DNA of 64,000 bases, taken from the NCBI GenBank assembly GCA_963747275.1, contig CAVVEI010000015.1, forward strand, positions 1,604 through 65,603. The letters run 5' to 3'. Position numbers and translations under genes: made by a program. Shown in pieces: positions 16,691-64,000 of this stretch. Within the stretch, counting starts at the first letter, position 1. Every line of letters begins with the position of its first letter. The stretch comes from an uncultured Actinomycetes bacterium. Its GTDB lineage: Bacteria > Actinomycetota > Thermoleophilia > RBG-16-64-13. A model generated the notes under the pieces. The model had not been told where the DNA came from. It did not search any database and saw only the letters and a program-made list of their open reading frames with translations.

Positions 16691-16779
16691 GAGCAGGGTG
16701 TTAGATGGCTCTCGGCAAATGCTCTCCGGCGCAGGGCGCCGGTGCTTCACCCGTACATGCGACCACTGGAGCGAAGAAG

Positions 16780-25419: not shown

Positions 25420-25546
25420 AGAATGGTTCAGCGCCCTCTCACAACGCCCGCAAATTCTGACAATGCCGTCTGTGATTGGTACGAACCGAGGTCCCACCAA
25501 CTAGGTCTTGGACACCGTTGCGCGCGCTCTATATCATGGTGTCCCT

Positions 25547-35335: not shown

Positions 35336-35513
35336 GTCACCTCTCCGGTAATAGGACGATAAATTGTGGATGATTGGAGGATGAATCCGAACCACGATAT
35401 CAGCCTTCGGTCGAGCTGCGCAATGTAAGCGGGGTCGGCCGGGACGTCGTGATGTTCCCCGGCGCCGAGTGAAGGGTATGATTGCTGTGATTGTTCCCCG
35501 CGAGGAGGTTGGC

Positions 35514-36359
35514 ATGCGTTGGCAGGGTAGGAGACAGAGCAGCAACGTCGAAGACCGACGCGGCATGAGCGCCGGCCCAGTGGCGATAGGTGGGGGCACG
35601 GTGGGCGTGATCATCGCTCTCGTCGTCCTGCTGGTGAGGTTCCTTGGTGATGGGGGTGCCGGCAGCGCCGGAGTTCAAGACACAAGCTTCGCTGGCGGCA
35701 CGGGGACGCTCGACGGCCAGAGCGACTTCGTAAGCGTCGTGCTGGCCGACACCGAGGACTACTGGACCGAAGCAGTTCAAGTCCGTGGGCAAGACCTACA
35801 GTGCGCCCAAGCTGATCCTCTTCAGCGGCATGGTGCAGACCGGCCTCGGGTACGGCCACTTCGGCCACAGGGCCGTTCTACTCGCCGGCCGATCAGATGA
35901 TCTACATCGACCTGAGCTTCTACCGCGAACTGCAGGACACTTATGGCGCGGGCGGCGACGCCGCCCAGGCCTACGTCATCGCTCACGAAGTCGGGCACTG
36001 CCGTGCAGGATCAACTGGGCCTGCTCGACCGGGTGGCGGCTCAGGAGCGGACGGCGAGCAGCGAGCTCAAGAGCCAACTCTCGGTGCGTACCGAGCTGCA
36101 GGCCGACTTCTACGCCGGGTTGGTGGCCCGCTATCAAGGCGACAACAAGTGGCTGGAGCCCGGAGACGTCGAGGAGGCTCTGAACGCCGCCAACGCCATC
36201 GGCGACGACCGGCTGCAGCAGCAGGCGCAGGGCTACGTGGTGCCCGACTCGTTCACGCACGGCACCTCGGCGCAGCGCGTGCGCTGGTTCAGGCTGGGCT
36301 ACGAGACCGGCGACTTCGCCAGCGGAGACACCTTCTCTATCCCGTACGACGAACTGTAG
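35514..36359 (+). CDS. YpfJ-like putative neutral zinc metallopeptidase, frameshifted
   Basis: [17 protein letters not shown].. N-terminus with RBS gaggagg. HExxH is present as VIAHEVGH. The C-terminal ..[11 protein letters not shown]. lies in ORF 35943..36359. Confidence 0.75.
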
Positions 36360-43192: not shown

Positions 43193-45907
43193 TTGGTGAC
43201 CAGTAGGCGGGCGGCAAAGCAGCACTGGACGCTTGTGGCAGGGGGCGTGTTGGTCGCCTGGCTGCTCGCATATGTGTCGGTCTTGGTCGCACTCCCGGAC
43301 CCCTCACGCACACGCGTCGCAGACATCCTAGGCTTGGTGCCCCCGTTCGCGGTGGCCGTGTTCTGCGGTATCGCTGCCCGCGCCGCCGAGGTGCGCAGAG
43401 TCCACTGGTTCTGGGCGCTCTTCGCGGCCGCCCACATCTGCTGGACGTTCGGTGCGGCGGGGCGCGTCTACTATGAGGTACTGCAGCAGGTAGCGACCCC
43501 ATATCCCGCCATTGCCGATATCGGTCTGCTGAGCTACTACGGGTTTGCCTTCGCCGGCCTGCTTCTGCTTGTGCGGCCGCGCGGAAGAGACAAGGCTGCG
43601 GGGGGTACTCTGCTGTTCGACGTCGTGCTCTTTGCCATGACCGCAGCCGCTGTCTGCTGGGAGTTGATCATAGCCCCTAGCTATGAATCCGGGGTCGGTC
43701 TCTATGTGAACCTGGCGAACGTGGCCTACAGCGTGGTAGATACCATGATAGTAGTGGCCCTGGTTACGTTGCTGCTAACCAGTGGCAGTTCTCTGCGGCC
43801 GCGCGGTCTCAGGTGGGTTGCTGGATGCCTGACCATCTGGTTGGTCGCTCACGTGACTTCTGCCGTGATGTCGTGGAACAGCGTACACGAGGCGGGTATG
43901 TGGCTTGACCCCTTCTGGGTGATGGGGTCTACCCTCGCCGGCGTGGGCGCCTTGTTGTTCATAAGAGGTGCCGGTCGGGCTGACGCAGCCCAAGCGGGTG
44001 AGGTAGCGCCCCGTGTGTCGGAGAAGACCATGGAGCTGGTACGCATGGCGATCCCATACGCGGCGATCCCGTCCATCGCGGCTCTACTCTGCGTGCGGTT
44101 CATAATCCGCGACGGCGGGTGGGGCGGCGACCTGGCCACAGTGTGTCTCGCCCTGGTGCTGACAGGTATGACTCTGTTCCGTCAGTGGCTCGCGATGATG
44201 AATACCCGCAGGCTGCAGCTGTCGCTGGCCGCGCTATCCCGCGATCTCGAAGTCCGGGTAGAAGAGCGCACAGCGGAGTTGGCGACCGAGAAGGAGCGTC
44301 TGGCGATGCTCAACCGGGTCGCCGAGGAGCTGAGTCAGTGTCTGACGGCTCGCGAGGTGATCACCAGCGGTCTCCGGCTTGTCTGCGAACCTGCGGGCTG
44401 CAGCCAGAGCGCAATGTGGCTGAACGGGCTGGGGCAACGGGAGAGGCTCTGGGCCGGTGAGGGACTGTCGTCCGGGGGCCGGCAGCAATTCCTGGCGGCC
44501 GTGGAGAGGTCACGTCCCGACGATGAGAGCATGGTCGGTTGGACGACAGTCAGTCTGACCGGCGGCGAACTGCACGCCGAAGGGGTGGACGAGGCTGGAG
44601 GCCCACTGCTGCAGAGGGTCTTGATCCTGCCCCTGGTCTCGAGACGCTCGGTCTTGGGGCTTCTCTGTCTGGGCTTCGGTCCTGCCGATCACCAGCCTGC
44701 AGAAGAGCACATCTCGCTCACGCGCGGGGTGGCCTCGCAGATCGCCGTTGCATTGGAGAACGCCAAACGCTACGACGACGCCCAGCGTTTGGCCGAAAGG
44801 GATCCAGTCACAGAGCTGCTGAACAGCCGCGGCTTGGCCCGCGCTTTGGACCGGGAGTTGGCTCGCGGCCAAAGGTCAGGCAGGCCCTTCACAGTGGTCG
44901 CCATGGATTTGGACAACTTCAAGCTCTTCAACGATATCCATGGACATGCGGCCGGTGACCAAGCCCTCCGGCAGGTCGCCACCGTGCTCAAGAAGACTCT
45001 ACGCCGCTCGGATACGATCGCGCGCCAAGGGGGCGACGAGTTCATGGGTATCCTGCCTGACACGTCCACCTCCAGCGCCATCGACTGCGCTCGTCACATC
45101 CAAGAGGCCATGCACAGCACCGGGTTCCGCGTCGACGCGAAGAACGCTATCCCGTTCTCAATAAGCTTCGGCCTCGCGACCTTTCCTGGCGACGGCCACA
45201 GGGTGGGCGAGTTGTTGGCGGTGGCGGACTCCAATGTCTATCGCTCTAAGCAGAGCGGCGGCAACTGCGTCACGCCTCTGGTCGGAGACAACGAGGGTCC
45301 CGAGGAAGTAGGGGCCAGTGTGTTCACCGTCTTGGAGGGTCTCGTGGTGGCCGTCGACAACAAAGACCACTACACCAGACAGCACTCTGACGATGTCATG
45401 AGCCATGCCCTTAGGCTTGCCGACCATCTCGGCCTCTCCCCGGGGACGCTGCGGCCGCTGCGCTTGGCCGGCCTGCTGCACGACGTCGGCAAGATCGGCA
45501 TACCCGACAGCATCCTGCGCAAGCCGGGGCCACTTGACCCGCACGAGTTCGAGGTCATCAAGCAACACGTGACCTTGGGGGAGGTGATGATCAAGGAGAT
45601 CCCCGACCTCAACGATATCTTGGCCGCCGTCGGCGCTCATCACGAGCGTTGGGACGGTGGGGGCTATCCCCGCGGGCTCTCTGGCGAAGGCATTCCCCTG
45701 CTAGGCCGTGTCCTGGCTGTGGCTGACGCCTACTCGGCCATGACCACCGACCGCCCGTATCGCAAAGCTCTGGGCGAGCGCGAGGCGCGTGACGAGATGC
45801 GCAGGGTCGCTGGTGTGCAGTTGGATCCGGCGCTCGTAGAAGTGTTCTTACGCGTCCTCGAAGAGGAGGCGGACGAGGTGGCACGCGGAGAGCTAGGAGC
45901 GGCTTGA
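43193..45907 (+). CDS. Membrane sensor with GAF, GGDEF and HD-GYP domains (bifunctional c-di-GMP enzyme candidate)
   Basis: Intact 904 aa with about 8 TM segments. Motifs: LNSRGL..MDLDNFKLFNDIHGHAAGD..RQGGDEFMGIL (GGDEF), and HS..V...A..LA..LGL..L..AGLLHDVGKIGIPD..L.KPG.L...E...IK.H...G..HHERWDGGGYPRGL (HD-GYP). Confidence 0.85.
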   Translation: MVTSRRAAKQHWTLVAGGVLVAWLLAYVSVLVALPDPSRTRVADILGLVPPFAVAVFCGIAARAAEVRRVHWFWALFAAAHICWTFGAAGRVYYEVLQQVATPYPAIADIGLLSYYGFAFAGLLLLVRPRGRDKAAGGTLLFDVVLFAMTAAAVCWELIIAPSYESGVGLYVNLANVAYSVVDTMIVVALVTLLLTSGSSLRPRGLRWVAGCLTIWLVAHVTSAVMSWNSVHEAGMWLDPFWVMGSTLAGVGALLFIRGAGRADAAQAGEVAPRVSEKTMELVRMAIPYAAIPSIAALLCVRFIIRDGGWGGDLATVCLALVLTGMTLFRQWLAMMNTRRLQLSLAALSRDLEVRVEERTAELATEKERLAMLNRVAEELSQCLTAREVITSGLRLVCEPAGCSQSAMWLNGLGQRERLWAGEGLSSGGRQQFLAAVERSRPDDESMVGWTTVSLTGGELHAEGVDEAGGPLLQRVLILPLVSRRSVLGLLCLGFGPADHQPAEEHISLTRGVASQIAVALENAKRYDDAQRLAERDPVTELLNSRGLARALDRELARGQRSGRPFTVVAMDLDNFKLFNDIHGHAAGDQALRQVATVLKKTLRRSDTIARQGGDEFMGILPDTSTSSAIDCARHIQEAMHSTGFRVDAKNAIPFSISFGLATFPGDGHRVGELLAVADSNVYRSKQSGGNCVTPLVGDNEGPEEVGASVFTVLEGLVVAVDNKDHYTRQHSDDVMSHALRLADHLGLSPGTLRPLRLAGLLHDVGKIGIPDSILRKPGPLDPHEFEVIKQHVTLGEVMIKEIPDLNDILAAVGAHHERWDGGGYPRGLSGEGIPLLGRVLAVADAYSAMTTDRPYRKALGEREARDEMRRVAGVQLDPALVEVFLRVLEEEADEVARGELGAA

Positions 45908-46406: not shown

Positions 46407-46565
46407 TTCGATCTTGCGTCCTGCGAAAATGGTGAGCAGGTGTACCGCGGCACTCTTTCCACACGCGTCTCGGGCGAGCACGGTCTTGCCGTGAGGGTGC
46501 TGCCGCGCAACGACGAGCTGCTCGTGCCCAACGAGCTGCCCTTGATAGCCTGGGAGGGAGCATGA
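46407..46565 (+). pseudogene. Possible 3' remnant of an alpha-glucan phosphorylase (DUF3417/GlgP-type) gene
   Basis: The frame-3 translation between a TAA at 46404 and the TGA at 46563 reads FDLASCENGEQVYRGTLSTRVSGEHGLAVRVLPRNDELLVPNELPLIAWEGA. The ..Y.g.l.....G.hg..vRvlP.......P.El.li.W ending is how that family terminates. No start codon and no upstream body. Confidence 0.3.
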
Positions 46566-47701
46566 CGAAGCAGGGGTTTGTGGCGTCGAGGTCCGCGCGG
46601 GTCGCGGCGGTCGCCGTGTTGGCCCTAGCCTTGGTGGCGGTCGCGCTGCCGGCGGCAGGGTGCGGGTCGGGGGCGGCCGATGGCGAGTCAGATACCACCG
46701 TGGACTCAGCGTTCGACCAGGCGGTGGCGCTCTATCCGGCGGCCACCAGCGCCGGCAACTATGGCTTCATAGACAAGAACGGGGCACTTGCCATCCCGGC
46801 CAAGTACGCTGAGGCGGCTGCTTTCTCCGGAGGGCTGGCCGCTGTCCGCTTGGAGGTCTTCGGCCGCTGGGGTTACATCGATCAGACCGGAAAGATGGTC
46901 ATAGAGCCGCAGTTCGCCGACGCCTCCGGGTTCTCGGAGGGTCTGGCCCCGGTACGGGTCGACGCCAACGGCTCCTGGGGCTTCGCCGACACCACGGGGG
47001 CGTTGGTCATAGCTCCGCAATTCGCCGACGCGGCCTCGTTCTCTGAGGGTCTGGCGCGGGTGCGCGAAGGCGAGGAGACGGGCTACGTGGACACGGGCGG
47101 CAAGTGGGTCATAAGGCTGGCCGACCAAGAGGCGGTAGGGGAGTTCTCCGGCGGTTTGGCCCTGGTGTATGAACGGGTCACCGACTTGTACGGCTTCATA
47201 GACAAAGACGGCGGCGTGGCCATCACCCCAGCCTATGCCGACGCGTGGAGCTTCTCTGAGGGGGTGGCGGTCGCGAGCCTGCCGGGCGGCAGCACAGAGG
47301 CGCCGGAAGGCGGCCTCTATGGATATATGGACAAGGACGGCGACTGGGTGGTCCAGCCGCAGTTCGCCGACGCCCGTCCGTTCAGAGAGGGGTTGGCGGC
47401 GGCGCAGTCGGCCTCTGATGGCAGCTGGGGTTACGTGGACATCACCGGCGAAACGGTGATCGACGGGCAGTGGGACGAGGCCGGGCCGTTCAGCGAGGGC
47501 ATAGCCCGCGTCGCCCTAGTGGTGGGGGACACCGAAGCCGGAGATCTGCTCTATGGCTACGCCTACGTCGACATGGACGGCAAGATCGTCTGGCAAGACC
47601 AGGTCTTTGCCGACTTCAGAGCCGGCCGGACGACCACCACCATAAATGACGCCGGCGTAACCGGGCCTGTGGGCGGGGCGACGAACACCAGCGGACAGTA
47701 G
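46562..47701 (+). CDS. WG-repeat (KWG-type) lipoprotein
   Basis: Lipobox ..LPAAGC. At least eight repeats of ..YGFIDK.G...I.P.F.DA..FSEGLA.V......WGY.D... Confidence 0.8.
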   Translation: MTKQGFVASRSARVAAVAVLALALVAVALPAAGCGSGAADGESDTTVDSAFDQAVALYPAATSAGNYGFIDKNGALAIPAKYAEAAAFSGGLAAVRLEVFGRWGYIDQTGKMVIEPQFADASGFSEGLAPVRVDANGSWGFADTTGALVIAPQFADAASFSEGLARVREGEETGYVDTGGKWVIRLADQEAVGEFSGGLALVYERVTDLYGFIDKDGGVAITPAYADAWSFSEGVAVASLPGGSTEAPEGGLYGYMDKDGDWVVQPQFADARPFREGLAAAQSASDGSWGYVDITGETVIDGQWDEAGPFSEGIARVALVVGDTEAGDLLYGYAYVDMDGKIVWQDQVFADFRAGRTTTTINDAGVTGPVGGATNTSGQ

Positions 47702-51045: not shown

Positions 51046-52075
51046 ATGGTGAGTAACGAAAAACAAGCTCGCGAGGCTTTGGAAAAGTTCTTTCCTAAGC
51101 CTTTTACCGATTATCAATGGAGCCTGATCTCGGCTCAGGGCTACGAAGAGGCGCTGCTGTCAGGTGTGCGCAGCGCCGACGAGGTGGCGGAGGAGCTCAA
51201 GGACCTCATGGAGGCCGCCGACAAGCGCGCCTCCGGCGCCGAGCAAGCGCCCCTGGGGCGTCCGGATGAGCCCCTGCTCACCTGGGACGAGATGGAGAAG
51301 CTGGTGCTGGGTCGCATCTTGGCCACCGGGGAGACCAGCGGACCCAAGCCCACGCCCGCCACGCCTGGGAGCGGGGTACGGTTCAGGCGTCTGGTACAGG
51401 GTCGGCAGAGCGGTCGCAGGCTCCGGTGGATCGTGGGCGGCACGGTGGGGTTGTTCGTCGTCGCCCTGGGGTCGACGGTCTTGCTGTTCTTGGGCCCGCA
51501 GTGCGGCGAGGGCGGCGCTTCGGGTACCACGAGCACGTCGGAGGTCACCCAGACCGATGTGCAGAGCTGGAATCGCGACCGGCCTCCCGACGACCACCAG
51601 CCCCTCGCTGCCGCCGGCCACCATACCGGCTCTTGATGTGCCCGAGTACACGGCCATGCTGAGCGGCGCCCAGGTGGTGCCCGCCGTCAACACCTCGGCG
51701 ACCGGCACCCTGGAGCTCAACCTCTCGGAAGATGGCACCAGCTTCGAGTGTGTGCTGACCGTGCAGGGGCTCACCGGTTTCACGCTGGCGCGCCTGCGGG
51801 TGGGCGAGCCCGGGCAGAACGGCGAGGAGATATGTCACCCTGTACAACGAAGGGATGAAGCGAGGCGCTGTTCAGCGGGGTGATCGTGCGGCGGTCGTTC
51901 GAGCGCGGCCGACTTCGTCGGCCCGCTGAAGGGTAAGACCATGGCCGAGTTGATCGCGCTGCTGGACGCCGGCTCGGTGTATGTGAACGTCGGCACCAGC
52001 CGCCACCGGGACGGCGAGCTGCGCGGTCAGTTGACGCCGCTCTCGTCAGAGTCGACGGCTGTGATATTCACGTAG
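51046..52075 (+). CDS. Single-pass membrane protein with a C-terminal CHRD domain, frameshifted
   Basis: Cytoplasmic N-domain, then a TM segment (WIVGGTVGLFVVALGSTVLLFL), then ..MLSGAQVVPAVNTSATGTLELNLSEDGTSFECVLTVQGLTG.. and ..VYVNVGTSRHRDGELRGQL (CHRD signatures). The 3' end is uncertain and would overlap the convergent gene by about 49 nt. Confidence 0.55.
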
Positions 52076-53153
52076 TAGGAGTAGGTGGCCTGGTCCAGGC
52101 CTATCACCTCCAACTCATAGTTTGTGCTCTGCCGGATCTCAACGGTGAGCGAGGAGTCGGTAGGCTGGGGAGTGCCGTTGAGAAAGACCGCGCACACGTT
52201 CTCGGTCGCCCACTCCAGTATCACCAGGGCGCCACGTTCTACCGTGATGGCTTGGACGCCCGGCACGGGACGGTCGCCGTTCTCCCAACCCGTGAAGGCC
52301 ACCACCGGCAGCGGCAGCTCTTCGAGCAGGTTCTCGTCTTCTAACTCGGGCACGTCTTCGTCATTCGGCGGCAGTTCGCTGAGGTTGGTCTCTTCTTCCG
52401 GAGGCGCCACCACCTGGCTGGGTTGCACCGCGGCGACGGCCGGCTTACCCGCGGGCAGGGCTTTGAGTATCTTGTTCACCAGTACGTCGTCCACCCAGGC
52501 GGTGGTGCCGTCGACCGCACCCAGCATGATGGTGCCCGCGGCTAACGGCGCGGTGTCGACCGCGGCCAGCCACAGAGTCCTATCCACGTAGACCTGTATG
52601 GTGCCGTTCTTCTTGGCCACGGTCAGGTAGTGCTGCTCGCCCGCGGCGGGTGCCTGGGCCTGGGTGAGCACGGCCTTGCGCCGGCAGCGTCTTCTTTCAC
52701 CAGCGAGATGAGGTCCTTATCTACGTACACGTAGTAGCGGCCGGTCTGCGTGGCATCGAAGCTGAAACCCAAGGCGCCGGCGCTGAGCGCATAGGAGCAT
52801 TTGAAGGCGTAGTCCCCGGCCCAGCCCACGCCCTTGGGCACGAAGGCGTACCCCTGCCCGGTGGCGTCGAAGGTGTAGAGGTCGCCGTCCTGTTGGACCA
52901 CCCAGGCTCCGCCCACCTGCCAGCCCTGGGCGTCGCCATCTTGAAAGTCGTCGCGAAAGAGGATGTTGTCGGCCGAGATACGGCCCGCGCCGGCGGCTAC
53001 GGTGGTCGGGGCGGTGTCGGGGGCAGAGTCGGTGGTCTGGGTGTCGTCCGACCTCAGGCCTCTGCAAGAGGCGGTCGCAAGAGATAGGCCGAGCACCAGT
53101 GCCAACAAGAGCAGAGGGAGGAGGATCGTCGACCATGGCCGGGAGCGTTTCAT
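52027..53153 (-). CDS. Lipoprotein with a LamG / DUF1080-like concanavalin-type domain and a C-terminal beta-rich domain, one frameshift
   Basis: MKRSRPW..LSLATASC (lipobox). ..ILFRDDFQDGDAQGWQVGGAWVVQQDG.. and ..GTIQVYVDRTLW....G.I.LGA....AWVDDV.V fit the DUF1080/LamG pattern. The break is near 52640-52680. Confidence 0.55.
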
Positions 53154-53170
53154 ATCGACCCCTTTCTGGT

Positions 53171-55047
53171 TCACTTGTCTGCGTACGTCAGCCCGAACCC
53201 GAACGGGAACGCCACCTCTACGCCCAGGTGGTCCAGCAGGGCCTGGCCGTGCAGCGGGCCGTACTCCACCACCTTGGCCTTGTTGTCGAACGGGGGCAGG
53301 TGGCCGCGCTGGTGGGTATGGCGAACGGCAGCCGGCCGGTGGGCTTCTCTTTGCCCAGCACGATGTCGGCCAGGGCGTGGCCGCCCTCCATGCCCGGGTA
53401 CCACAGCATGAGGATGGCCGGCACCACCTGGCGCCAGCGCTCCATGAGCACCGCGCTGCCGGCCACCACCGCGGCCACCGTGCGCGGGTTGGCCGCCGTC
53501 ACGGCCAGCAGCAGGTCTTCGTCCTGGGCGTGCAGGGTGAGCGACTTGCGGTCGCCGCCCTTGGCGTAGCCGTCGGGCACGCAGCTGCTGCTTCAGCAGC
53601 CGCTTGGCCATGCGGCTTAGCGCCCACCGCGGGGGCAGGGGCAGGCGCCGTATGAGCCACCACGGCAGCCCGGTGTCCAGGTTCTCGCCCTCGTCGTCGT
53701 GGTCGTAGCCCACCACCACCACGGCCGCGTCGCAGCCGGCCGCCAGGGCGGCGGCGCGCGCCGCGTCGGAGCCGTCGTCGTACACCACCTCGACCTTCTT
53801 GGGCTTCAGGGCGGCCCGCAGGCCCTCCAGGGGGGTGACCGAGCTGGGCGGGTTGACCCCGCTCGAGCCCCGGTCGCCCAGGTTGGGCAGGCGGCCAACC
53901 GCCCGATGACCGCCAGCCGCTTCAGCTCCGCGGCCTTGAGGGGCAGCACGGGCTTGGGCTGCGCGCGCCGGGCGCGCGGCCCGGCGCCTGCGGCGCCGCG
54001 CCGCGGCGCGCCGCCCGCGCCGCGCGCGCGGCTCCACCGGCTCGTTGCGCAGCAGCACTATGGCCTTGGTGGCCACCTCGCGCGCCAGGGCGCGGTGCTT
54101 CTTGCAGGCGATCACTTCTGGGCCGTACTTGCCGTCGCCCAGCTCGGCCACCCGCAGTTGCTGGCGGATGAGCCTGAGCGCGGCGTCGTCGACGCGCTCC
54201 ATGGGCACCCGGCCGCGCTTGACGGCCCGCAGCAGCCGCTTGCCCAGCATCACGGGGGAGGGCATCTCCAGGTCTAGGCCGGCTCTCACGGCCGCCGGGC
54301 CGTCGTGCACGCCGAACACCCAGTCGCTGACCACGAAGCCGTCGAAGCCCCACTTCTCTTTGAGTATGTCGGTGAGCAGCCGGCGGTTCTGACTGCACCA
54401 CTGGCCGTTGACCGAGTTGTACGCCGACATCACGCTGCCCACGCCCGCGCGCACCACCTGCTCGAAGGCGGGCAGGTAGACGCTGGTGCAGCGCCTCTTC
54501 GCCCACGCGCACGTCCACCTTAAGGCGCGAGTCTTCGATGCTGTTGCAGGCGAAGTGCTTCACGCAGGCCAGGGCGTGCTTCTGCACCCCGCGGGTGAAG
54601 GCCACGCCCATGTCGCCCAGCAGCTGGGGGTCTTCGCCGTAGGTCTCCTGCGCCCGGCCCCAGGCCGGATGGCGCAGCAGGTTTATGCAGGGGGCCAACA
54701 CCAGGTCCACCCCCAGCGCCCGGGCCTCGCGGCCCATGGCCTCGCCCACCCGCTCCTCTAACTCGGGGGAGAAGGTGGCCGCCCGCGCCATGGGCACCGG
54801 GAAGCAGGTGCAGTGGCCCTTGGTTATGCCGCGCGGACCGTCGCTGTAGACGAAGCCCTTGAGCCCCAGGCGGGGCACCTCGGCGGCCGAGGCCGGTCGC
54901 CCTTGGCTGCTCGACCTGGCCGGGAGCGCCCAGGATGAAGCTGTAGAAGCTCTTGCTGCCGGAGAGCATGCGCACCTTCTCCTCCAGGGTCAGCTGGTCG
55001 CGCAGCTTCTGGGCTCGCTTCTCGAGCTTGGCGGAGACGGTGGGCAT
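53171..55047 (-). CDS. Glycoside hydrolase family 3 (BglX-type beta-glucosidase), multiply frameshifted
   Basis: ATG 55047 with AGGAGG. ..GFVYSDGPRG.., ..KHFACNS.E..R.., ..GFDGFVVSDW.. (nucleophile Asp context), ..VVVVGYD...EGE..D.. and ..WYPGMEGG.ALADI..G...P.GRLP are spread over three frames. Confidence 0.8.
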
Positions 55048-55110
55048 GCCTGTGAGCCTCCTTTGGGCGGGTCGGCGGCGGAGATAGGGGCACGGAGCTA
55101 AGCATAGCGC

Positions 55111-55150
55111 GCGGGGGGCGGTGGGGGGGGGGAGGCCGGGGGCGAGGAGG
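55111..55150 (+). repeat. G-run tract with a 10-G homopolymer in the divergent intergenic region
   Basis: gcggggggcggtggggggggggaggccgggggcgaggagg, read directly. The G10 spans 55123-55132. Confidence 0.7.
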
Positions 55151-55387
55151 TCGCAGCCACGCTGGGGTTTCGTTGCAGTGACCAGCGAGGTGCTTGCAGT
55201 CTCGAGTGGAATCTGCGACATTGGCTCGCAGAGCAGTCCTTGACGGGATGTTTGTCGGGGACGTGGTTGCTAGTCCGAAAAACATATGGTTGGGTTAAGG
55301 GGGGGGTCAGTGCAAGCATTGCTTGAACACACTGCTGGCGCAGGGGAGAGCGCAAGGCGGAGGCGATTCCGCTTTGGCCTGTGCATT

Positions 55388-58300
55388 ATGGCGACTCTAT
55401 TCTTTGTACTGATTATCCAGACTGGCTATGCCTCCGCAGATGGCTTCCGATATCCTCTCGGTGATGGTTGGGCAAGACCTGCTAGCCAAAACCTGTGGGC
55501 CGACTCGTTCGATCCATACTATGGGCGCTTGGCGGATGACTGACTTCGGCTCGAGCACGCTGACGGCTACCTATAGGGGTACGGTAGTCAGGTCTGAGTG
55601 GCACAATGACTACGGCAACGTAGTGGTCATACAGCACGATCTTCCGACAGGCACGGTGTATTCGTTCTATGGACACATGGCGAGCCGTGCGGTCGCCGTG
55701 GGGAACTCGGTCGAAACCGGAACCGCCGTCGGAGTGATTGGGGAGACAGGGGCGATTTGCTTTGGCGTGCATGTACACTTTGCAGTCAGCATCGTCCTCG
55801 GGCATAGTCAGAGGCTACTACGGCTCGTCCTTCTCGTCAGCTAACACGAGCATGGTCAAGGATGGGGTGACTTACTACAATCCCTCCTGGTTCATTGAGA
55901 GCAACAGGACGGTAGTTTGGGACACCGCCGGTCCCACCGGCTCCATCACCAGCCCGGGGGCCAATCAGAACGTCCGGTCTCCCGGATATACGACGGTCAC
56001 AGGCAGTTTCAGCGACCCGTCTGGGGTAGCGCGAGTTGCCCTGCAATGGAAGTACGCAGATCAGGCAGACGCCTCGTACGCGGGCGTGGGTGACATGGCC
56101 GCGACCGGTGGGGGCGGCTATAGCTTCACCCTTGACCACTCGGCCACGGGCTTTCAAGCCGGGCGCGCGGTCATTCTGCGGGCAGTCGCCTTTGATGGTT
56201 TGGGCAATGCCAACTGGGGCATAACGACTCGCATCGTCCCGGTCGCCAATCAGAAGCCCACCGGGACCTCAATGACACCCACCGGGGCTATGGCCACAGG
56301 CATCTTCCGCGACTACATCTTCGTGGGTACCGACGGCGACGGGGTCGCCGACATGACCAAGGTCAACCTGATGATCGGTCCCTCCACAGACTACTCCGCT
56401 AATTGGGCCAGCACCATCTACATGACCTATATCAGGTCAGAGAACAAGCTCTATCTGTACGACGCCGCGGGTGCCAACTCCTCCGGTGTCGTGGGGTCGT
56501 CGACTGTTCTCTCCAACGGCCAGGCCGATTTGGAGCTCTCGAAGACCACCGTCACGGCATCCGGCAGCACACTCACTATCAAGGCGCGGGTGCGTCCGCA
56601 CCTGACCGGCAGCAAGACTGCCTACGTGCGGGCCGTGGACCAAGCAGGTATCACCTCCGCGTACAAGAACTGTGGCGCGGTCTCACTCACCAACCAAGCT
56701 CCGGCCGTGGGCACGGTGAGTCCCGCATCGGGCAATATTCCTACAGGGCTGTACAGCAAGGTGACCTTCACTGGCATCGATCCAGACGGGGCGGACCAGA
56801 TCAGGTTGGTGCGTCTGATCATCGGCCCGGACTCCAGTGAAAGCAACTATGCGAACAAGATATCGATCCAGGCCTGGGGAGATGGCCGTATCGTTCTGTT
56901 TACCAAGGCCGGTGGCAGCGTCAGTGGGTATGTGGGTGCTTCGCAAGTGCTGAGCACAGACACATGTTCGATAGATCTGAAGAACTCCACAAAGGTCAAG
57001 ATCGGCACCACCCTCAGTTTCTCGTTGGCGCTTACGCCTGCTGCGCTAGGGAGCTTCAATACCTATCTCAACACCAAGGACCAAGCACTCATAGACTCGG
57101 CCTTTGTGCAGAAGGGCACCCTCTCAGTGGTGGCTGGGCGCTACCAGCAGACCGACTCCCGCCTTACCTATCTGGGCACCTGGTCGTCCGGCGCCACCTG
57201 GTCGGCTTCTGGCGGCAGCTTCGCCTCCGCCTCAGTGCCCGGGGCCGGGGTGGTCGTAGCCTTCACTGGGCCCTCCATCAAGGTGGTGTCACGTACCGCC
57301 CCCTGGTACGGCCAAGCTCTAGTGAGCGTAGACGGCGGGACTCCCACGACTGTCGATATGTACAGCGCCGCCACGGTATACAAGAAGCAGGTCTATGAGA
57401 AGACCGGTCTTTCCTCCGGAGCCCACACCCTCACCATCAAGTGTGCCGGCGCCAAGAGCACGGCTTCGACCGGCTATGGCATAAGTCTCGATGCTCTGGA
57501 TATCGCCGGTAGCCTCACCCAGGCTCCCAAGACCACGCGCTACCAGCAGGACGATGCCAAGCTTGCCTATGCGGGCACCTGGACCACCGCTTCGGGCAAC
57601 TGGTCGTACTCAGGGGGCAGCTTCAAGTCCGGCAGCGGGACCGGTACCAAAGTGACGGTCACCTTCACCGGTAGCTACCTGGCCTGGGTCGCCAAGACCT
57701 GCCCCTGGTACGGCAAGGCCAAGGTGACCTTGGATGGCGATACCGTCAACGCCAAGACCGCAGACCTCTACAGCTCCGCCACCACCTACAAGAAGACCGT
57801 CTACAAGACCGGTCTGCTGGACAACAAGTCCCACACCCTTGTGATCGAGTGGACTGGTAGTAAGTACGGGGCCTCGACCGGCACTGCCATCGGGGTGGAT
57901 GCGTTCGACATCTTGGGGACGCTGACTCAGGGCACGCAGACCAATCCAATCGACCCGGCGAACTTCGGCAACATACTCACGGATGCGGCAACTGGTTCCT
58001 CGTACCTCATTACGTACGCCGGCAAGCGCGCGGGCATACCTACTGGGGGTGACTATCAGTCGATGGTGAACAACGGCGTGCCCGTGGTGAGCACAAGTTG
58101 GTCGGTGATTTCTCAATATCCGGACGCGGGGTACCAAGCGGTTGTCGCTCGTATGGATGACCCCGTCATCGGCGGAGACCCAAAGTGGATCCTCAACTAT
58201 TCTGGCGACGGGCACGGCTATGAGAACGACTACCGCGCTACCCAGTCGGCAGCAGGAAAGCCCACCGCCACCAACTCGGCGACCTGGACGCTGGCAAACG

Positions 58301-58560
58301 GGCGCGGCAAGGTGAAGTTGAACGCGTATATCCCCAGCATGACCGATATCTGGGCCGGTGTGGTCTATGAGGTCTGGGATGGCGGTACCTTGCTGGCAAC
58401 AGTTCCGGTCAATCAGTTCAATTACAAAGGATTCATGACCCTGGGGACCTGGACGTTCTCCTCGGGCAGCATCGTGATCAGATGCTATGACAACCAAGGC
58501 ACAGGCCCCTACGGCGTCCTGATGGGTTGGGACTGCATGGAGGCGGTACCGATAGGCTGA
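55388..58560 (+). CDS. Large secreted multidomain protein A: signal peptide, M23 (LytM) peptidase head, Ig-like repeats, two ~125-aa shared modules, C-terminal golvesin-like domain. Two frameshifts in the first 400 nt.
   Basis: MATLFFVLIIQTGYASA signal. ..YGNVVVIQHD...GTVYSFYGHM....V.VG..V..G..VG.IGETG...GVHVHF (M23 motifs) spans frames 55286/55428/55738. The remainder is the intact 940-aa ORF. Modules are at 57139-57516 and 57538-57924. Confidence 0.7.
57139..57924 (+). repeat. Two copies of the shared ~125-aa module (protein A)
   Basis: Each copy begins RYQQ[TD]D..L.Y.GTW and contains SGGSF, F.G, PWYG.A.V..DG, D.YS, YKK.VY, GL....HTL.I. and S.G..I..DA.DI.G.L. Confidence 0.8.
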
Positions 58561-58582
58561 CGACGGGCACGCACGTAGTCCT

Positions 58583-58633
58583 CTGTGCCGAGGGGACCGC
58601 TGGCCCGGGTTCGGGTCGCGACCCTCGGCACAG
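58583..58633 (+). terminator. Long hairpin after gene A (12-bp stem ctgtgccgaggg/ccctcggcacag with a structured loop)
   Basis: Read directly. Followed by cgtttg. Confidence 0.35.
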
Positions 58634-58865
58634 CGTTTGAGCTTCAGGCGGGGCCACCTGGGCGACCGAGGCCTCTCCCTTGCTCTCGTCGTGGTCGGTA
58701 TCGTGGAGCTTCAGTTGTTCAGCGACGGACTCTGGGCAAGGCGCCCCCTCTGGTTGCGGCCAGGCGCAAATGCCTCTGATATCCTGTTGACGCCCCAGTC
58801 TGCCGATAGAGGCTCGATATGGAGATATCTTCGCCGGCGCAGATCTGGCCGCGGAAGGAGGACGC

Positions 58866-61339
58866 ATGAACAGGTGTAAAGCCGCGTTTCTGGGGATCAC
58901 GCTGGTCGCTCTTGGCCTGCTGGCGGTCCGGCTGAGCACCGCCTCCGCGGCGGAGACCGCGGAGGCCAACCTCATCTTCTTTCACCACAGCGTGGGCAGC
59001 AACTGGCTGGCGAGCGGGCTTGTTGCCGCGCTCAACGATTCTGGCTACTTCGTGTCCGACACCAACTATGGGTGGACGGGCGGCAGCGGGCCCGACTACG
59101 GCAGCTCCACCGACACGGGCGACTGGCCCACCTGGTTCACCGACACGGTGATGGGGCTGGCGTATCCGTGGACAGGATCTGTCGTCGGGCGCCAACGACG
59201 TCGACCTCGACCCGGCGGCCGGCGAGAACACCATGATCATGTTCAAGAGCTGCTACCCCAACAGCGACGTGGGCTACGGCATCGACGACGAGAAGGCCAT
59301 CTACAACAGCCTGCTGCCCTACTTCGAGGATCACCCCGACAAGATGTTCGTGCTCATCACCCCGCCACCCATGCCGACGCATCGCACGACGCCCGCAAGA
59401 CCCGGGAGCTCTGCAACTGGCTGGTCGACCGCGACGCCGGGTGGCTGAAAGACCTGACCACCGGCAACGTCTTCGCCTTCGACCTCTACAACGTGCTGAC
59501 CCACCCCAGCGCGCACCACACCGCGGTGGGCGGCGTCGAGACCCACACGGTCGTCGCGCGGCGCCAACACCCTCTACTCTGGCTACCACAGCAGCGGCGA
59601 CGACCACCCCAACGCGGCCGGCAACGCCAAGGCCACGGCCAAGTTCGTGCCGCTGCTGAACGTCTGGTACGAGGAGTTCTTGGCCGCCTCGGGCACGGCT
59701 CCGCGGCGCTATCAGCAGGACAATAAGCTGCTCACCTACCTGGGGGGGTGGAAGTACCTCGCCAGCAGCGCGGCGTCGGGGGGGAGCCTCACCTACACCA
59801 ACGCCAAGGGCGCCTCGGTGCTCGTCTCGTTCAGCGGCACCTCGGTCGAACTTCTGGCCCGCACGGGGCCCGATTACGGCAAGGTGCTCATCACCTTGGA
59901 CGACGGAGCGGCCGAGAGCTACGACCTCTACAGCTCCAGCCCCGCCCACCAGCAGAGCATCTACGAAGAGGAGGGTCTGGACGACACCACCCACACCCTC
60001 ACCATAACCTGCGAGGGCGACAATAGCACCTTGTCCTCGGGCACCAACATCAGCCTGGACGCTCTGCGCATCCTCGGCACGCTCACGGAGGCCGACAAGC
60101 CCATCCGCTATCAGCAGGACGACGCGGCTCTCGAATACAAGGGCACCTGGGCCACCGCCACCGGCACTTGGGCGCAGTACTCGCTGTCGAGCGCCAAGAG
60201 CGCGGCCGGACCCGGACGATCGGTGAACGTGAGCTTCACGGGCACCTATCTGGCCTGGATAGCTCCCATGACCCCGTGGTACGGCAAGGCCTTGGTGAGC
60301 GTTGACGAAGGTCCGCTGGTGCCGGTAGACCTCTACAGCTCGAGCGTGAAGTACAAGCAGAGGATCTTCGACACCGGCCTGTTGGACGACGCGCCGCACA
60401 CCCTCAGCATCTACTGGACGGGCGATAGGAGGACGGCGGCCAGCGGCACCAACATATCCGTCGATGCCTTCGACGTCATGGGCACGCTCACCGACGCCGA
60501 TGCGGCTCCGCCCATACTGTGGCGCTATCAGCAGACCGACCCCCGCATCACCTACGTGGGCGCTTGGTCGTACGGCTCCACCTGGTCGGCCTCGGGCGGC
60601 AGCTTCGCCTCCACGGGCGCGGCCGGGGCGGGCGCGCTGGTGAACTTCACCGGCACGTCGGTCAAGCTGGTGGCCCGCACCGCTCCGTGGTACGGCCTGG
60701 CCGAGGTCTGCGTGGGCGGCGACACCGAGACCGTAGACTTCTATTCGCCCACCGTGGCCTACAAGCAGGTGGTGTTCGAGAAGACGGGGCTATCACCCGG
60801 CGAGCACACCCTCTCCATCAGAGTGCCTGGGGGACAAGCGCACCGAGTCTAGCGGCTACTCCATAAGCCTGGATGCACTCGACATAACGGGCTACCTGGA
60901 GCAGGGCCCCGTGGCCACCCGAGTGCAAGAGAACGACGCAGTCTGGGTAGGCGAGGGGGCAATAGCCACCGCGGGCACTTGGAGCAGCCACGTGGGCAGC
61001 TGGGCGCTCTACTCGGGCAGCGGCCTCATGACCGCCAACACCGCGGGAGCCAAGATGACCGTCACCTTCGACGGCCGCTACCTGGCCTGGGTGGCCAAGA
61101 CCACCCCCTGGTACGGCAAGGCCAAAGTGACCCTGGACGCCGGCACCCCGGACGAGGTGGTCAAGATAGTGGACCTCTACAGCTGGACACAGGGCTACAA
61201 GAGGACCGTCTACAACACCGGGCTCTTGGATGAGGGGTCGCACACGGTGGTGATCGAGTGGCTGGGCGAGAAGTACTGGCGCTCGGCGGGCACCACCATA
61301 AGCGTGGACGCCTTCGACCTGATACTGGCGCTGCCGTAG
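58866..61339 (+). CDS. Large secreted protein B: signal peptide, SGNH-like esterase-type head (uncertain), four shared ~125-aa modules. At least 5 frameshifts.
   Basis: RBS ggaaggagg. MNRCKAAFLGITLVALGLLAVRLSTASA signal. The head has ..NLIFFHHSVGSNW.., ..MIMFKSCYPNSD.. and ..SSGDDHPNAAGNAKA.. (block-V-like D-x-x-H). Modules are at 59707-60084, 60106-60489, 60523-60898 and 60920-61336. Pieces are ORFs 58866..59726, 59233..59448, 59647..60852 and 60911..61339. Confidence 0.6.
59707..61336 (+). repeat. Four copies of the shared ~125-aa module (protein B)
   Basis: Same motif set as in proteins A and C. Confidence 0.8.
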
Positions 61340-61377
61340 CGCGCTACAGCCAGACACACAGCAGTCTACGACCACGT

Positions 61378-61399
61378 GGGGGCGCCGCAAGGCGCCCCC
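61378..61399 (+). terminator. GC hairpin after gene B (gggggcgcc gcaa ggcgccccc)
   Basis: 9-bp perfect stem. A near-identical element follows gene C. Confidence 0.45.
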
Positions 61400-61512
61400 A
61401 CTGCATCTGGGGCCGCCGGCACGCAGCCCCGCCGTTTGACATGCGTGTTTCGGAGAGTTAGCGTGCTTGGTGGGGGCGTCAGCCCACAACACTTAAGCTA
61501 AGGGGGCGGGCA

Positions 61513-63831
61513 GTGTCGAACATTCGCATCATTCCCTCCGGCCGAACGTGCAAGATCCTCGGTGCAATTGTGCTACTGGTCGCGCTTGCAGTGGCGCTGC
61601 CCACCTTCGTGCTCGCCTCGTCGGAGCCCGCCGATGCTCAGCGCCCAGTGAGAGGCGTGCTGGGCAGCGGCGACCATGCGGCTCCGTTCGCACCAAGTGA
61701 AGCCTCAGGATCAGAGCTCGAGCTCAGCACCCTGGGGCCGAATGTGCTTTTTGACTGGGTGGAGAGCGGCAGCGGCAGCTGGACCGCCACCAGTACCTGG
61801 GCCATCACCACCGAGTGGCTACCGCCCTGGGAGGAGCCGGGCAATCACAGTTGGAGCGACAGCCCGAGCGCGAACTACGCCAACAACGCCGACTCGACCC
61901 TGACGAGCGGCATAATCGACCTTTCGGCGGCGGCGGTAGACCAGGAGGTGATGCTGTATTTCGCATGCAACTACGCGCTGGAACTCAACTCTGACTTTCT
62001 CTACGTGGAGTTGTCAAGCGACGGTGGGTCCAGCTGGTCGTACTTAGGGGACTACTTGACGGGCACCGATCCAGAAGGGTGGTACTTCACGTTCGTCCCA
62101 GCGTCGTTTCACACCAACCAGTTCAGGCTCCGTTTTCGGCTGGTGTCTGACTCGTCGGTGACGGCCGATGGGGTGCACATCGACGGAGTGCAGGTGTACA
62201 CCTCGAATACCGATATGGGGTGGGCCGACGATGCGCGGCTGGCCTACTTTGGCACCTGGGCAACCACCACCCGGCCCTACAGCGACGGAGGCACCTGGAC
62301 CTACAAATCGTCCAACAGAACCGGAGACTTGATCAAGATCGACTTCACCGGGCCTGCCATCATGGTGAACGGCAAGATGGGCCCGACCTCCGGCATCGCG
62401 AGCGTGAGTCTTGATGGGGGGACGCCTACAGAAGCCGACTACTATTGGGATCCGGCTTCGGGCAGTGACTACAATCAGTACCCCATGGGGATCGTCTGGC
62501 TCGAAGGGTTGACGGACGCACCGCATACCCTCACCATCTGCTGTTCGGGCACCAAGAACCCCGCTTCTACCGGCTATACGGTGAGCCTCGAGAGTGTGGC
62601 GGTGTGGGGTAGCCTGGACTCAGCCACCGGCCCCGTGCGCTACCAGCAGGACGACACCCACCTCGCGCGCGAGGGCACCTGGGGCACCAGCAACACCTGG
62701 TTGTGCTCGGGCGGCAGCATGATCTCGGCCGACTCGGCCGGCTCGGCTATAAGGGTCGGCTTCTCGGGCACGTACCTGGCCTGGGTGGCGAAGAAAGGCC
62801 CGGGTTACGGCAAGGCCCAGGTCAGCCTCGACAGCGGCCCACTGGTGCCCGTCGACCTCTACAGATCTTACGACAGCTACAAGCAGCGGGTCTACAACAC
62901 CGGCCTGCTTGCCGACGGAGCTCACACCCTCGACATCTACTGGACAGGGCAGAAGAACTCGGCTTCTTGGGGTACCAAGATCGGCGTGGATGCTCTAGAC
63001 GTGCTGGATACTATCACCGGTACCACCGTGCCGACACCCATCACTTGGCGCTACCAGCAGACCGACCCCAAGCTCACCTGGCTGGGTAGTTGGGCCCTTA
63101 GCTCTACCTGGTCGGCGTCGGGCGGCAGCTTCCGCTCGACCTCCAAAAAGGGCGATGCCGTGATAATCAGCTGGCGAGGCGACGACATCTCCCTGATAGC
63201 CCGAACGGTGCCGTGGGGCGGCAAGGCCGCGGTGACCGTCGATGGCGGCACCGAGGAGCTGGTGAGCTTCTATAGCTCGACGACGCTCTACAAGCAGCCT
63301 GTGTTCTCGACCACAGGCCTATCGCCCGGCGACCACAGACTCATAGTCAAGTGCCTGGGTTCTAATGACGGCCCACCCTCCAGTGGCTACTCCGTCAGCG
63401 TCGACGCCCTAGACATCAAGGGCTGGTTGGTAGACGCGCAACGGACGTCACGCGTGCAGGAGACCGACGCCGTGTACACAGCTCCGTGGACCTCCAACGC
63501 CACTTGGCAGGCTTCGGGCGGTACCTACGCCACTCTCACCGGTATGGGCAGCAAGGTGGTGTATACGTTCTACGGCAGCTACTGTGCGTTGATAGCCAAG
63601 ACCGCCCCGTGGTACGGCAGGGCCGAAGTCACTCTGGACGGCCTCACCACCACTCAGGTGGACTTCTATAGTCCTACGATCACCTGGAAGAAGATGGTGT
63701 ACAACACAGGCCTCTTGAGCAACGCTACGCACACGCTGCAGGTGAAGTACCTGGGCAGCAAGTACTGGGCCTCCACCGGCTACGTGGTCGACGCAGACGC
63801 TTTCGACGTGTTGGGCCCCATACTCTGGTAG
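61513..63831 (+). CDS. Large secreted/anchored protein C: N-terminal TM/signal, MAM-like jelly-roll head, four shared ~125-aa modules. Intact.
   Basis: GTG start after aaggggg. The head ..SWSDSPSANYANNADSTLTSGIIDLS......MLYFACNYALE.NSDFLYVELSSDGGSSWSYLG....RLRFRLVSDSSVTADGVHIDGVQVY follows the MAM-like pattern seen in secreted proteases. Modules are at 62221-62616, 62638-63015, 63049-63429 and 63451-63828. Confidence 0.7.
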   Translation: MSNIRIIPSGRTCKILGAIVLLVALAVALPTFVLASSEPADAQRPVRGVLGSGDHAAPFAPSEASGSELELSTLGPNVLFDWVESGSGSWTATSTWAITTEWLPPWEEPGNHSWSDSPSANYANNADSTLTSGIIDLSAAAVDQEVMLYFACNYALELNSDFLYVELSSDGGSSWSYLGDYLTGTDPEGWYFTFVPASFHTNQFRLRFRLVSDSSVTADGVHIDGVQVYTSNTDMGWADDARLAYFGTWATTTRPYSDGGTWTYKSSNRTGDLIKIDFTGPAIMVNGKMGPTSGIASVSLDGGTPTEADYYWDPASGSDYNQYPMGIVWLEGLTDAPHTLTICCSGTKNPASTGYTVSLESVAVWGSLDSATGPVRYQQDDTHLAREGTWGTSNTWLCSGGSMISADSAGSAIRVGFSGTYLAWVAKKGPGYGKAQVSLDSGPLVPVDLYRSYDSYKQRVYNTGLLADGAHTLDIYWTGQKNSASWGTKIGVDALDVLDTITGTTVPTPITWRYQQTDPKLTWLGSWALSSTWSASGGSFRSTSKKGDAVIISWRGDDISLIARTVPWGGKAAVTVDGGTEELVSFYSSTTLYKQPVFSTTGLSPGDHRLIVKCLGSNDGPPSSGYSVSVDALDIKGWLVDAQRTSRVQETDAVYTAPWTSNATWQASGGTYATLTGMGSKVVYTFYGSYCALIAKTAPWYGRAEVTLDGLTTTQVDFYSPTITWKKMVYNTGLLSNATHTLQVKYLGSKYWASTGYVVDADAFDVLGPILW
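62221..63828 (+). repeat. Four copies of the shared ~125-aa module (protein C)
   Basis: Same motif set as in proteins A and B. The first copy is the most divergent. Confidence 0.8.
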
Positions 63832-63860: not shown

Positions 63861-63965
63861 GGGGGGCGCCGAAAGGCGCCCCCCGCCGCATCTGGGGGCT
63901 CGGCGTCGCGAGGGCCGAGCCCCCAGAAAAGCACTGAGGCCCGCCGGCATAGCCGGCGGGCCTCA
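63861..63965 (+). terminator. Three consecutive GC hairpins after gene C (63861-63884, 63894-63924, 63935-63965)
   Basis: ggggggcgcc gaaa ggcgcccccc; gggggctcggc..gccgagccccc; tgaggcccgccggc atag ccggcgggcctca. Confidence 0.5.
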
Positions 63966-64000
63966 GAGAGTCGCAGCTGAAGAATCAGCTACAAGGTACT

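Follow-up and report, generated by a model that had tools for sequence, protein, structure and literature searches.

Ten copies of one carbohydrate-binding-type module, arranged in tandem behind three different N-terminal heads, are encoded on the + strand of contig CAVVEI010000015.1 of an uncultured Actinomycetes bacterium. They lie in three co-oriented coding regions, genes A, B and C, at 55.3-63.9 kb of the 64-kb stretch of DNA that was analysed (hereafter the window). The favoured reading is that the arrays are glycan-binding tails which would retain secreted enzymes at the surface of the cell that produces them. We give this reading, which draws on sequence comparison, predicted structure and analogy with characterised systems, a probability of about one half. 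Under it, the products of A, B and C would be exported by means of N-terminal signal peptides, which were judged by eye, and the array would then bind, non-covalently and multivalently, a glycan in the envelope of the cell that made them, either peptidoglycan itself or one of the secondary polysaccharides of the wall. In this way the M23 peptidase of A, the SGNH-like esterase of B and the MAM-like domain of C would be kept at the cell surface, and the same tail would be re-used, with swapped heads, on dozens of paralogues encoded in co-oriented clusters. The three genes are as follows (aa, amino acids; nt, nucleotides; ORF, open reading frame).

55286-58560, + strand: gene A, about 1090 aa stitched from a three-frame translation
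58866-61339, + strand: gene B, about 825 aa stitched, with AGGAGG 5 nt 5' of the ATG
61513-63831, + strand: gene C, intact ORF of 772 aa, with a GTG start after AAGGGGG

Repeat module, pairing and fold

A profile was constructed from ten hand-cut copies of the module and run on a six-frame translation of the window. Exactly ten modules of about 133 aa each were found (2, 4 and 4 in A, B and C, respectively) and none elsewhere in the window; the copy scores of 142-194 bits were obtained against a profile made from these same copies, which therefore match it by construction. A preliminary description of this DNA had reported ten copies of a shared unit in three co-oriented genes; the repeat, which is far beyond chance, was correctly recognised there, and its size was given as about 125 aa. 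Independently of the profile, it is attested by the identity among the copies and by numerous homologues outside the window, both described below. The copies are listed below with their types, which are defined in the next paragraph.

57136-57534, + strand: module A1, type a, 193.9 bits
57535-57942, + strand: module A2, type b, 190.6 bits
59704-60102, + strand: module B1, type a, 180.9 bits
60103-60507, + strand: module B2, type b, 191.7 bits
60520-60916, + strand: module B3, type a, 141.6+30.6 bits, interrupted by a frameshift near 60840
60917-61336, + strand: module B4, type b, 167.5 bits
62212-62634, + strand: module C1, divergent, 156.2 bits
62635-63033, + strand: module C2, type b, 187.5 bits
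63046-63447, + strand: module C3, type a, 181.6 bits
63448-63825, + strand: module C4, type b, 169.5 bits

Pairwise identity among the ten copies ranged from 28 to 63%, and the constant motif skeleton noted earlier was borne out, residues W16, G45, P56, G59, Y76, H97 and G113 being invariant. Two types were distinguished in the identity matrix: type a, in which A1, B3 and C3 share 52-63% identity and which B1 joins more loosely, and type b, in which A2, B2, B4, C2 and C4 share 39-58% identity. The 62 full-length relatives of C (P0031-P0093), retrieved together with fragments and distant matches, carry 2-6 copies, mostly 4 or 6; within a pair the copies abut, and a 4-residue linker is present between pairs only. 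Because copy numbers are even (2, 4, 6) and the linker is confined to the junctions between pairs, the evolutionary unit is, on these alignments, an a-b pair of about 266 aa.

Comparison with Pfam linked the module, at borderline scores, to a named family. CE2_N (PF17996) was detected on the ORF pieces at 31.3 bits in A, 36.1 bits in B and 23.2 bits in C, with a cut-off of 27.9 bits, and matched 45 of 46 multi-copy relatives at E<=1e-5 (best 4.7e-37). Neither CBM_6 nor CBM_35, the Pfam entries for two families of carbohydrate-binding module (CBM), gave a match at E<=1 in A, B or C, and NCBIfam returned nothing meaningful. When the module profile was compared with the sequences of the PDB, 3nqh was matched at 6e-8; the match to 7ehg was weak (E 0.015, 18 bits), identity in the Foldseek alignment was 23%, and the module is not placed in CBM84 by its sequence.

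A structural model of a single module followed by a Foldseek search had been proposed as a check in the preliminary description. The AlphaFold model of module A1, computed from 28 aligned homologues, is all-beta and a beta-jelly-roll, the fold of the CBM35/CBM6/CBM36 group, with a predicted local distance difference test score (pLDDT) of 97.4. The Foldseek search of this model against the PDB returned CBM folds, which are listed with their E-values and template modelling (TM) scores.

3nqh, C-domain of BT_2959: 3e-7, TM 0.68
7ehg, MiXBM (CBM84): 2e-6, TM 0.67
6f2p, xanthan lyase: 1.4e-5, TM 0.67
2waa, CE2 esterase: 2e-5, TM 0.65
2wab and 2wao, CE2: 1e-4, with a TM range of 0.58-0.65 for CE2
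2wz8 (5e-5, TM 0.67) and 2w46 (2e-4), CBM35: TM 0.64-0.67
8j3x, CBM6 (5e-4), and 7ay3, CBM36 (8.5e-4): TM 0.56-0.60

On the profile matches and the model taken together, the module is a carbohydrate-binding-type jelly-roll of a divergent branch of CE2_N. The two best structural neighbours are 7ehg and the BT_2959 domain, with an identity to the module of only 18-23%, and both occur singly, in enzymes that degrade polysaccharides. MiXBM (7EHG) is listed under the xanthan lyase of Microbacterium sp. XT11, and the xanthan-binding module is CBM family 84 (PMC10881899). The CE2 enzymes (CjCE2, 2waa; CtCE2, 2wab/2wao) are related in sequence through CE2_N, have the same jelly-roll and resemble the present proteins in carrying hydrolytic heads. 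In CE2, however, a single N-terminal copy is joined to one SGNH catalytic domain whose substrates are plant polysaccharides, an architecture found in none of A, B and C, whereas here 2-14 tandem copies in a-b pairs are mostly C-terminal to dozens of unrelated heads, many of which are peptidoglycan hydrolases, and gene C is below the Pfam cut-off. No description of tandem a-b arrays, or of their occurrence with peptidoglycan hydrolases, was found in the literature on PF17996/CE2_N.

No established anchor was recognised in the three proteins. At E<=1, Pfam returned neither SLH, LysM and CWB1/2 nor GW/SH3 for the three products, and an LPXTG-type sorting signal is absent from the C-termini (...MEAVPIG, ...DLILALP and ...VLGPILW), in agreement with what had been noted from the sequence at the outset. 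The SLH, CWB2, GW and choline-binding repeats have the same architecture, namely repeated non-covalent wall-binding units on a large set of paralogous enzymes, but their fold and sequence are unrelated to those of the module.

Partner domains and proposed retention at the cell surface

An exhaustive profile search was performed against 1.84 billion representative proteins, and the matches were counted as clusters at 50% identity, of which 18,158 were found at E<=1e-3, 9,182 at E<=1e-10 and 1,811 at E<=1e-30. In the source databases the members of this family of about 9,000 clusters are named, where they are named at all, as "hypothetical protein" or after the head domain. Architectures were determined for 128 of the 150 best matches, the others having already been retrieved in earlier searches. 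These 128 representatives carry 3-14 copies each; in 99 of them the array lies at the C-terminus, in 20 at the N-terminus and in 9 within the protein. A survey of the fused heads, which the preliminary description had recommended, yielded many different ones, including M23, Amidase_3, S8, CAP and PD40. The peptidoglycan-acting partners found among relatives and representatives are Amidase_3, NlpC/P60, SpoIID and Polysacc_deac_1, in addition to M23; protease partners are Peptidase_S8, M10, M28 and C39-like domains; and the remainder includes CAP/YkwD, PD40 propellers, TIG and Big domains and, occasionally, CWB2 and CBM_35.

In the genome collection, which was scanned with type-a patterns only and gives a lower bound on distribution, matches were confined to metagenome-assembled genomes (MAGs) named "uncultured Actinomycetes bacterium"; a scan of the collection with protein C alone gave no match. 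One relative, contig CAWFCL010000004.1 (1.6 Mb), contains about 20 arrays in the parts that were sampled (L001-L008), all of them co-oriented and forming two clusters, one at 375-403 kb and the other at 451-483 kb. At least two frameshifted paralogues (P0007 and P0011) are located on the same contig as A, B and C, outside the window.

The head of B changes its anchor between lineages. Its family comprises 643 homologues, almost none of them with a precomputed Pfam domain, and is found in Clostridia, Christensenellales, Goldbacteria and Actinomycetes (P0246-P0365 listed). At least 56 of the 120 homologues listed are lipoproteins, with a lipobox followed by a low-complexity spacer, and in one (P0248) the head is fused to CWB2; among the homologues, the module array occurs only in this actinobacterial lineage. 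In two other MAGs (L007 and L002) the same head is likewise followed directly by four modules, and a head of the C/MAM type is encoded downstream.

Viral proteins were also matched by the module model. The best matches in BFVD were minor tail proteins, tail fibres and hydrolases of actinophages, led by Gordonia phage Beenie (1.2e-8, TM 0.76) and including an Arthrobacter phage and a Rhodococcus phage. The same fold was seen in a protein of an uncultured phage annotated as CE2 N-terminal domain-containing (TM 0.83).

Retention at the producer's surface is suggested, indirectly, by several of these results. Enzymes acting on the wall of the cell itself predominate among the heads; the head of B, which is lipid-anchored or joined to CWB2 in other lineages, carries the array here; and phage tail proteins with the module fold must recognise actinobacterial envelopes. 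The roughly 20 co-oriented arrays on one MAG contig and the predominantly C-terminal position of the arrays point the same way, as do two precedents. CBM37 of Ruminococcus albus attaches many enzymes to the producer's own wall carbohydrate (PMC4081043), and it resembles the present module in being a single lineage-restricted module, often in tandem, on many secreted enzymes. The likeness is one of logic, no sequence relation having been found, and CBM37 is joined to plant-cell-wall carbohydrate-active enzymes of a Firmicute, whereas the heads here are largely peptidoglycan hydrolases and proteases of Actinomycetes. The CBM35 of CsxA, an exo-glucosaminidase of Amycolatopsis orientalis, binds the wall polysaccharide of its producer (PMC11002231, citing Montanier 2009). 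CsxA provides an actinobacterial module of the CBM35/6 fold whose catalytic domain acts on something else; it differs in having a single copy on one enzyme, not a genome-wide tandem array with many heads.

The preliminary description had proposed a shared non-covalent anchor that displays different enzymes and belongs to an unnamed family. The CBM fold, the C-terminal arrays and the variety of heads are consistent with the first part of this proposal; the second is not upheld, since CE2_N detects A, B and nearly all of the relatives scanned, and the principle of a CBM serving as a surface anchor already has precedents in CBM37 and the CsxA CBM35. Both the fold and this principle are known.

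Several observations weigh against retention at the producer's own wall. The module isoelectric point (pI) is 4.3-9.3 in the window, with a median of 5.2 across 190 modules, and this wide spread differs from what is seen in many wall-polymer binders. CWB2 and the module occur together in the relatives P0071, P0072 and P0081 and in 2 of 46 scanned representatives; if CWB2 anchors those proteins, the module may do something else in them. The characterised structural neighbours mostly target the substrate of their enzyme and not the wall of the producer, and the expression of A and B, which are frameshifted in the assembly, cannot be taken for granted. As a general mechanism, attachment to anionic wall polymers by electrostatic attraction was also considered and was rejected on the pI range in the window.

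The binding habits of the structural neighbours bear in particular on the main rival explanation, according to which the array targets an external polymer (the walls of other bacteria or of fungi, an exopolysaccharide, or plant glycans) and concentrates freely secreted lytic enzymes on it, in the manner of the cell-wall-targeting domain of lysostaphin or of classical CBMs. All of these neighbours are substrate-binding CBMs (CBM84 for xanthan, CE2 for cellulose or mannan, and CBM35/6), many of the heads are lytic (M23, amidase, NlpC/P60 and S8), and phage tail proteins use the module fold to recognise the surface of another cell. The same array is nevertheless found on heads without an evident lytic function, among them the MAM-like domain, the PD40 propeller, CAP and TIG, and the occurrence of the head of B as a membrane-tethered lipoprotein in other lineages suggests action at the producer's surface. 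No glycoside hydrolase that degrades plant polymers or other polysaccharides is among the partner domains listed for close relatives. On balance, targeting of an external polymer is regarded as somewhat unlikely.

The length of the arrays raises a different possibility, that of a structural stalk or lattice. In this case the modules would be rigid spacers or self-assembling units of a surface layer without specific glycan binding, and the proteins would be retained by something else, for example by an uncleaved signal anchor. Surface proteins of Gram-positive bacteria commonly contain tandem stalks of Ig-like or beta-sandwich domains; within this family some arrays reach 14 copies and some proteins are giant, and the N-terminal hydrophobic stretch of C could be an anchor that is not cleaved. 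Aromatic-rich residues (W16, PWYG, Y76, YK, H97 and D119) are, however, kept across copies with 28-63% identity and across thousands of clusters, a pattern more readily expected of a binding site than of a passive spacer. As a rule the arrays are far C-terminal and do not lie between anchor and head, and the signal of B is typical and cleavable, ending in ASA-A. A stalk or lattice without specific binding is therefore quite improbable.

Returning to surface retention, a more specific form of it can be advanced tentatively, and with less confidence than the general reading: the a-b pair may be the repeat unit of an unrecognised, lineage-wide, non-covalent wall anchor of uncultured soil Actinomycetes, a CBM-type jelly-roll counterpart in function of SLH or CWB2, whose ligand may be a secondary wall glycan that is also recognised by actinophage tails. 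If the module is a wall anchor, it would constitute a new family of cell-wall-binding repeats in a large group of uncultured Actinomycetota. Such an anchor would make their surface proteome predictable, would point to an uncharacterised wall glycan as ligand and would offer a modular tag for surface display. Attached to peptidoglycan hydrolases, the Pfam name "Carbohydrate esterase 2 N-terminal" gives a wrong impression.

Reading frames and heads of the three genes

Among the three genes, C alone is a single intact ORF. Neither the 3173 nt first assigned to A (55388-58560) nor the 2474 nt assigned to B (58866-61339) are divisible by three, and neither interval is a single ORF; the proteins, which had been termed giant, are large at about 770-1090 aa. 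Gene A contains at least two frameshifts, near 55530 and within 55740-55840, and has to be read in three frames, and gene B contains four, near 59150, 59390, 59560 and 60840. In a phase plot of third-position GC (GC3), the coding signal runs on across every frame change in A and B, and residue conservation likewise continues across these changes.

Frame breaks are not peculiar to the arrays. The 64-kb window is resolved by the GC3 phase plot into 125 short coding segments (median 270 nt). The gene for malic enzyme is split into 16705-17649 and 17522-18178 (with the break at about 17.5-17.6 kb), and the glycoside hydrolase family 3 (GH3) gene upstream of A and genes for major facilitator superfamily (MFS) transporters are also frame-split. 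Examples of frame breaks in the window lie at 16705-18178, 33857-35614 and 53171-55221. The nearest relatives are Nanopore MAGs of the Microflora Danica project (PMC12313526), in which similar breaks were seen (L005). Since breaks are pervasive in the window and the Nanopore relatives break similarly, the frameshifts in A and B are probably indels of the long-read assembly.

The same frameshifts, at least two in A and four in B, could be taken to mean that the cluster is a set of decaying pseudogenes in which A and B are remnants and the array is without a current role. Shifts are found throughout the window, housekeeping genes included (malic enzyme, GH3 and MFS), the GC3 signal and the conserved residues cross every shift in A and B, the Nanopore MAG relatives are broken in a similar way, and gene C is intact. 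True pseudogenisation is unlikely, and a decaying cluster whose array has lost its role is hardly to be expected. Frameshifts in long-read MAGs do split genes of this kind into many spurious short proteins, which inflates databases: all 30 matches of a word search with the module profile were such fragments, of 71-244 aa.

The reading of gene A joins a signal-like N-terminal stretch to the M23 segment of ORF 55428-55844 and to a 940-aa ORF at 55738-58560. The order of its parts is signal peptide, M23, Big_7, two 148-aa repeats, modules A1-A2 and a 204-aa C-terminal domain, those other than the signal peptide and the modules being as follows.

55557-55790, + strand: Peptidase_M23 (PF01551), E 3.6e-16, 59.6 bits with a cut-off of 28.7
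55933-56145, + strand: Big_7 bacterial Ig domain (PF17957), E 1.8e-6, 28.9 bits with a cut-off of 24.1
56248-56691 and 56692-57135, + strand: two 148-aa internal repeats, local alignment score 193
57946-58557, + strand: 204-aa C-terminal domain, following module A2

The M23 peptidase and Ig-like repeats that had been described for this head were confirmed by the first two matches. The M23 match covers residues 44-121 of its ORF and includes the HxH-type motif GVHVHF, the N-terminal part of the domain being broken by a frameshift. The internal repeats, whose alignment score compares with 34+/-6 in 200 shuffles, have no Pfam match. Contrary to the earlier account, the gene does not end in modules, the 204-aa domain being situated after them; this domain gave no Pfam match at E<=1 and no match to PDB sequences at E<=10. 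It may resemble the golvesin/Xly-type carbohydrate-binding (CBD-like) domains known from actinobacterial amidases, an assignment which, with no Pfam match, is not claimed here. In-frame starts are present upstream of 55388, at 55286 (ATG) and 55310 (GTG), with an n-region RRRRFRF that could be a Tat motif, and a start at one of these is more likely than one at 55388. A run of eight G at 55298-55310 directly precedes the possible GTG start; it may belong to a ribosome-binding site and is also a likely place for an error in homopolymer length.

Gene B encodes, in order, a Sec signal peptide (MNRCKAAFLGITLVALGLLAVRLSTASA), an SGNH-like head and four modules. The signal, judged by eye, is of the canonical Sec type and cleavable. 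Gene C encodes an N-terminal hydrophobic signal, a MAM-like head and four modules. The heads were located as follows.

58950-59703, + strand: head of B, alpha/beta family, defined from homologues and the model of P0246
61882-62235, + strand: MAM-like jelly-roll head of C, InhA-like_MAM (PF20773), E 2.8e-5, 24.2 bits

That the stitched reading of B is correct follows from its unbroken coding signal and from the head, which is 68% identical to the independent protein P0246 across 98% of its length. No Pfam, NCBIfam or PDB sequence match was obtained for this head. The motifs invariant in its family are IHHS, FKSC.P.S and D.HP (a D-x-H spacing), and the canonical SGNH/GDSL blocks (GDS, G, GxND and DxxH) are not those that are conserved. 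The AlphaFold model considered is that of the homologue P0246, and not of the frameshifted window sequence; it has an alpha/beta core, mostly with pLDDT >90, and gave weak Foldseek matches to the SGNH proteins 4h08 (5e-4, TM by target 0.58), 7toh (1e-3), 2wao (3e-3) and 1fxw (8e-3), with platelet-activating factor acetylhydrolase (PAF-AH) among them. The esterase-type SGNH-like domain proposed for B is accordingly plausible from the model at the level of the fold only, and neither a sequence family nor the canonical blocks bear it out. The head is a candidate for a new family of cell-surface esterases.

The product of C is 59% identical to P0031 over 100% of its length and begins, as judged by eye, with a charged n-region followed by a 22-residue hydrophobic stretch. 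Its InhA-like MAM scores are 22.5-24.2 bits (E 3e-5 to 9e-5), below the cut-off of 26.9. The MAM-like nature ascribed to this head is supported by the relatives P0034 and P0045, which carry a precomputed InhA-like MAM annotation, and C itself does not reach the threshold.

Intergenic signals and neighbouring genes

Possible transcription signals were located between B and C and downstream of C.

61376-61401, + strand: GC-rich hairpin with an 11-bp stem, a GCAA loop and no T-tract, just 3' of the stop of B, read by eye
61436-61464, + strand: promoter-like TTGACA-17 nt-TAGCGT upstream of C, a consensus match only
63934-63966, strand not assigned: strong GC-rich 15-bp hairpin about 100 nt past the stop of C, from the terminator scan

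The first hairpin is a possible terminator; the terminator scan itself returned none between genes A, B and C. Together, the hairpins and the promoter-like site suggest, without being decisive, that the genes are separately transcribed.

The following genes were identified elsewhere in the window.

53171-54457: GH3 glycosidase, the upstream neighbour of gene A, from Pfam
52027-53174, - strand: "LamG lipoprotein", with lipobox LATASC, split over two ORFs
25508-28142: MBOAT acyltransferase (E 2.3e-25) followed by a GDSL/SGNH protein (E 1.1e-10)
46562-47701: protein with six WG-containing beta repeats, E 8e-72
43193-45907: GAF-GGDEF-HD(GYP) protein
21605-23893: GAF-GAF-SpoIIE phosphatase

Of the envelope genes that had been said to lie nearby, the GH3 and MBOAT/GDSL genes were recovered. 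The LamG lipoprotein has no Pfam match at E<=1e-3, and neither tagD nor tagF was seen among the window ORFs scanned. The pairing of an MBOAT protein with an adjoining GDSL/SGNH protein is typical of systems for the O-acylation of polysaccharide or peptidoglycan. The signalling genes at 43193-45907 and 21605-23893 and the WG protein gene have no obvious link to the module arrays.

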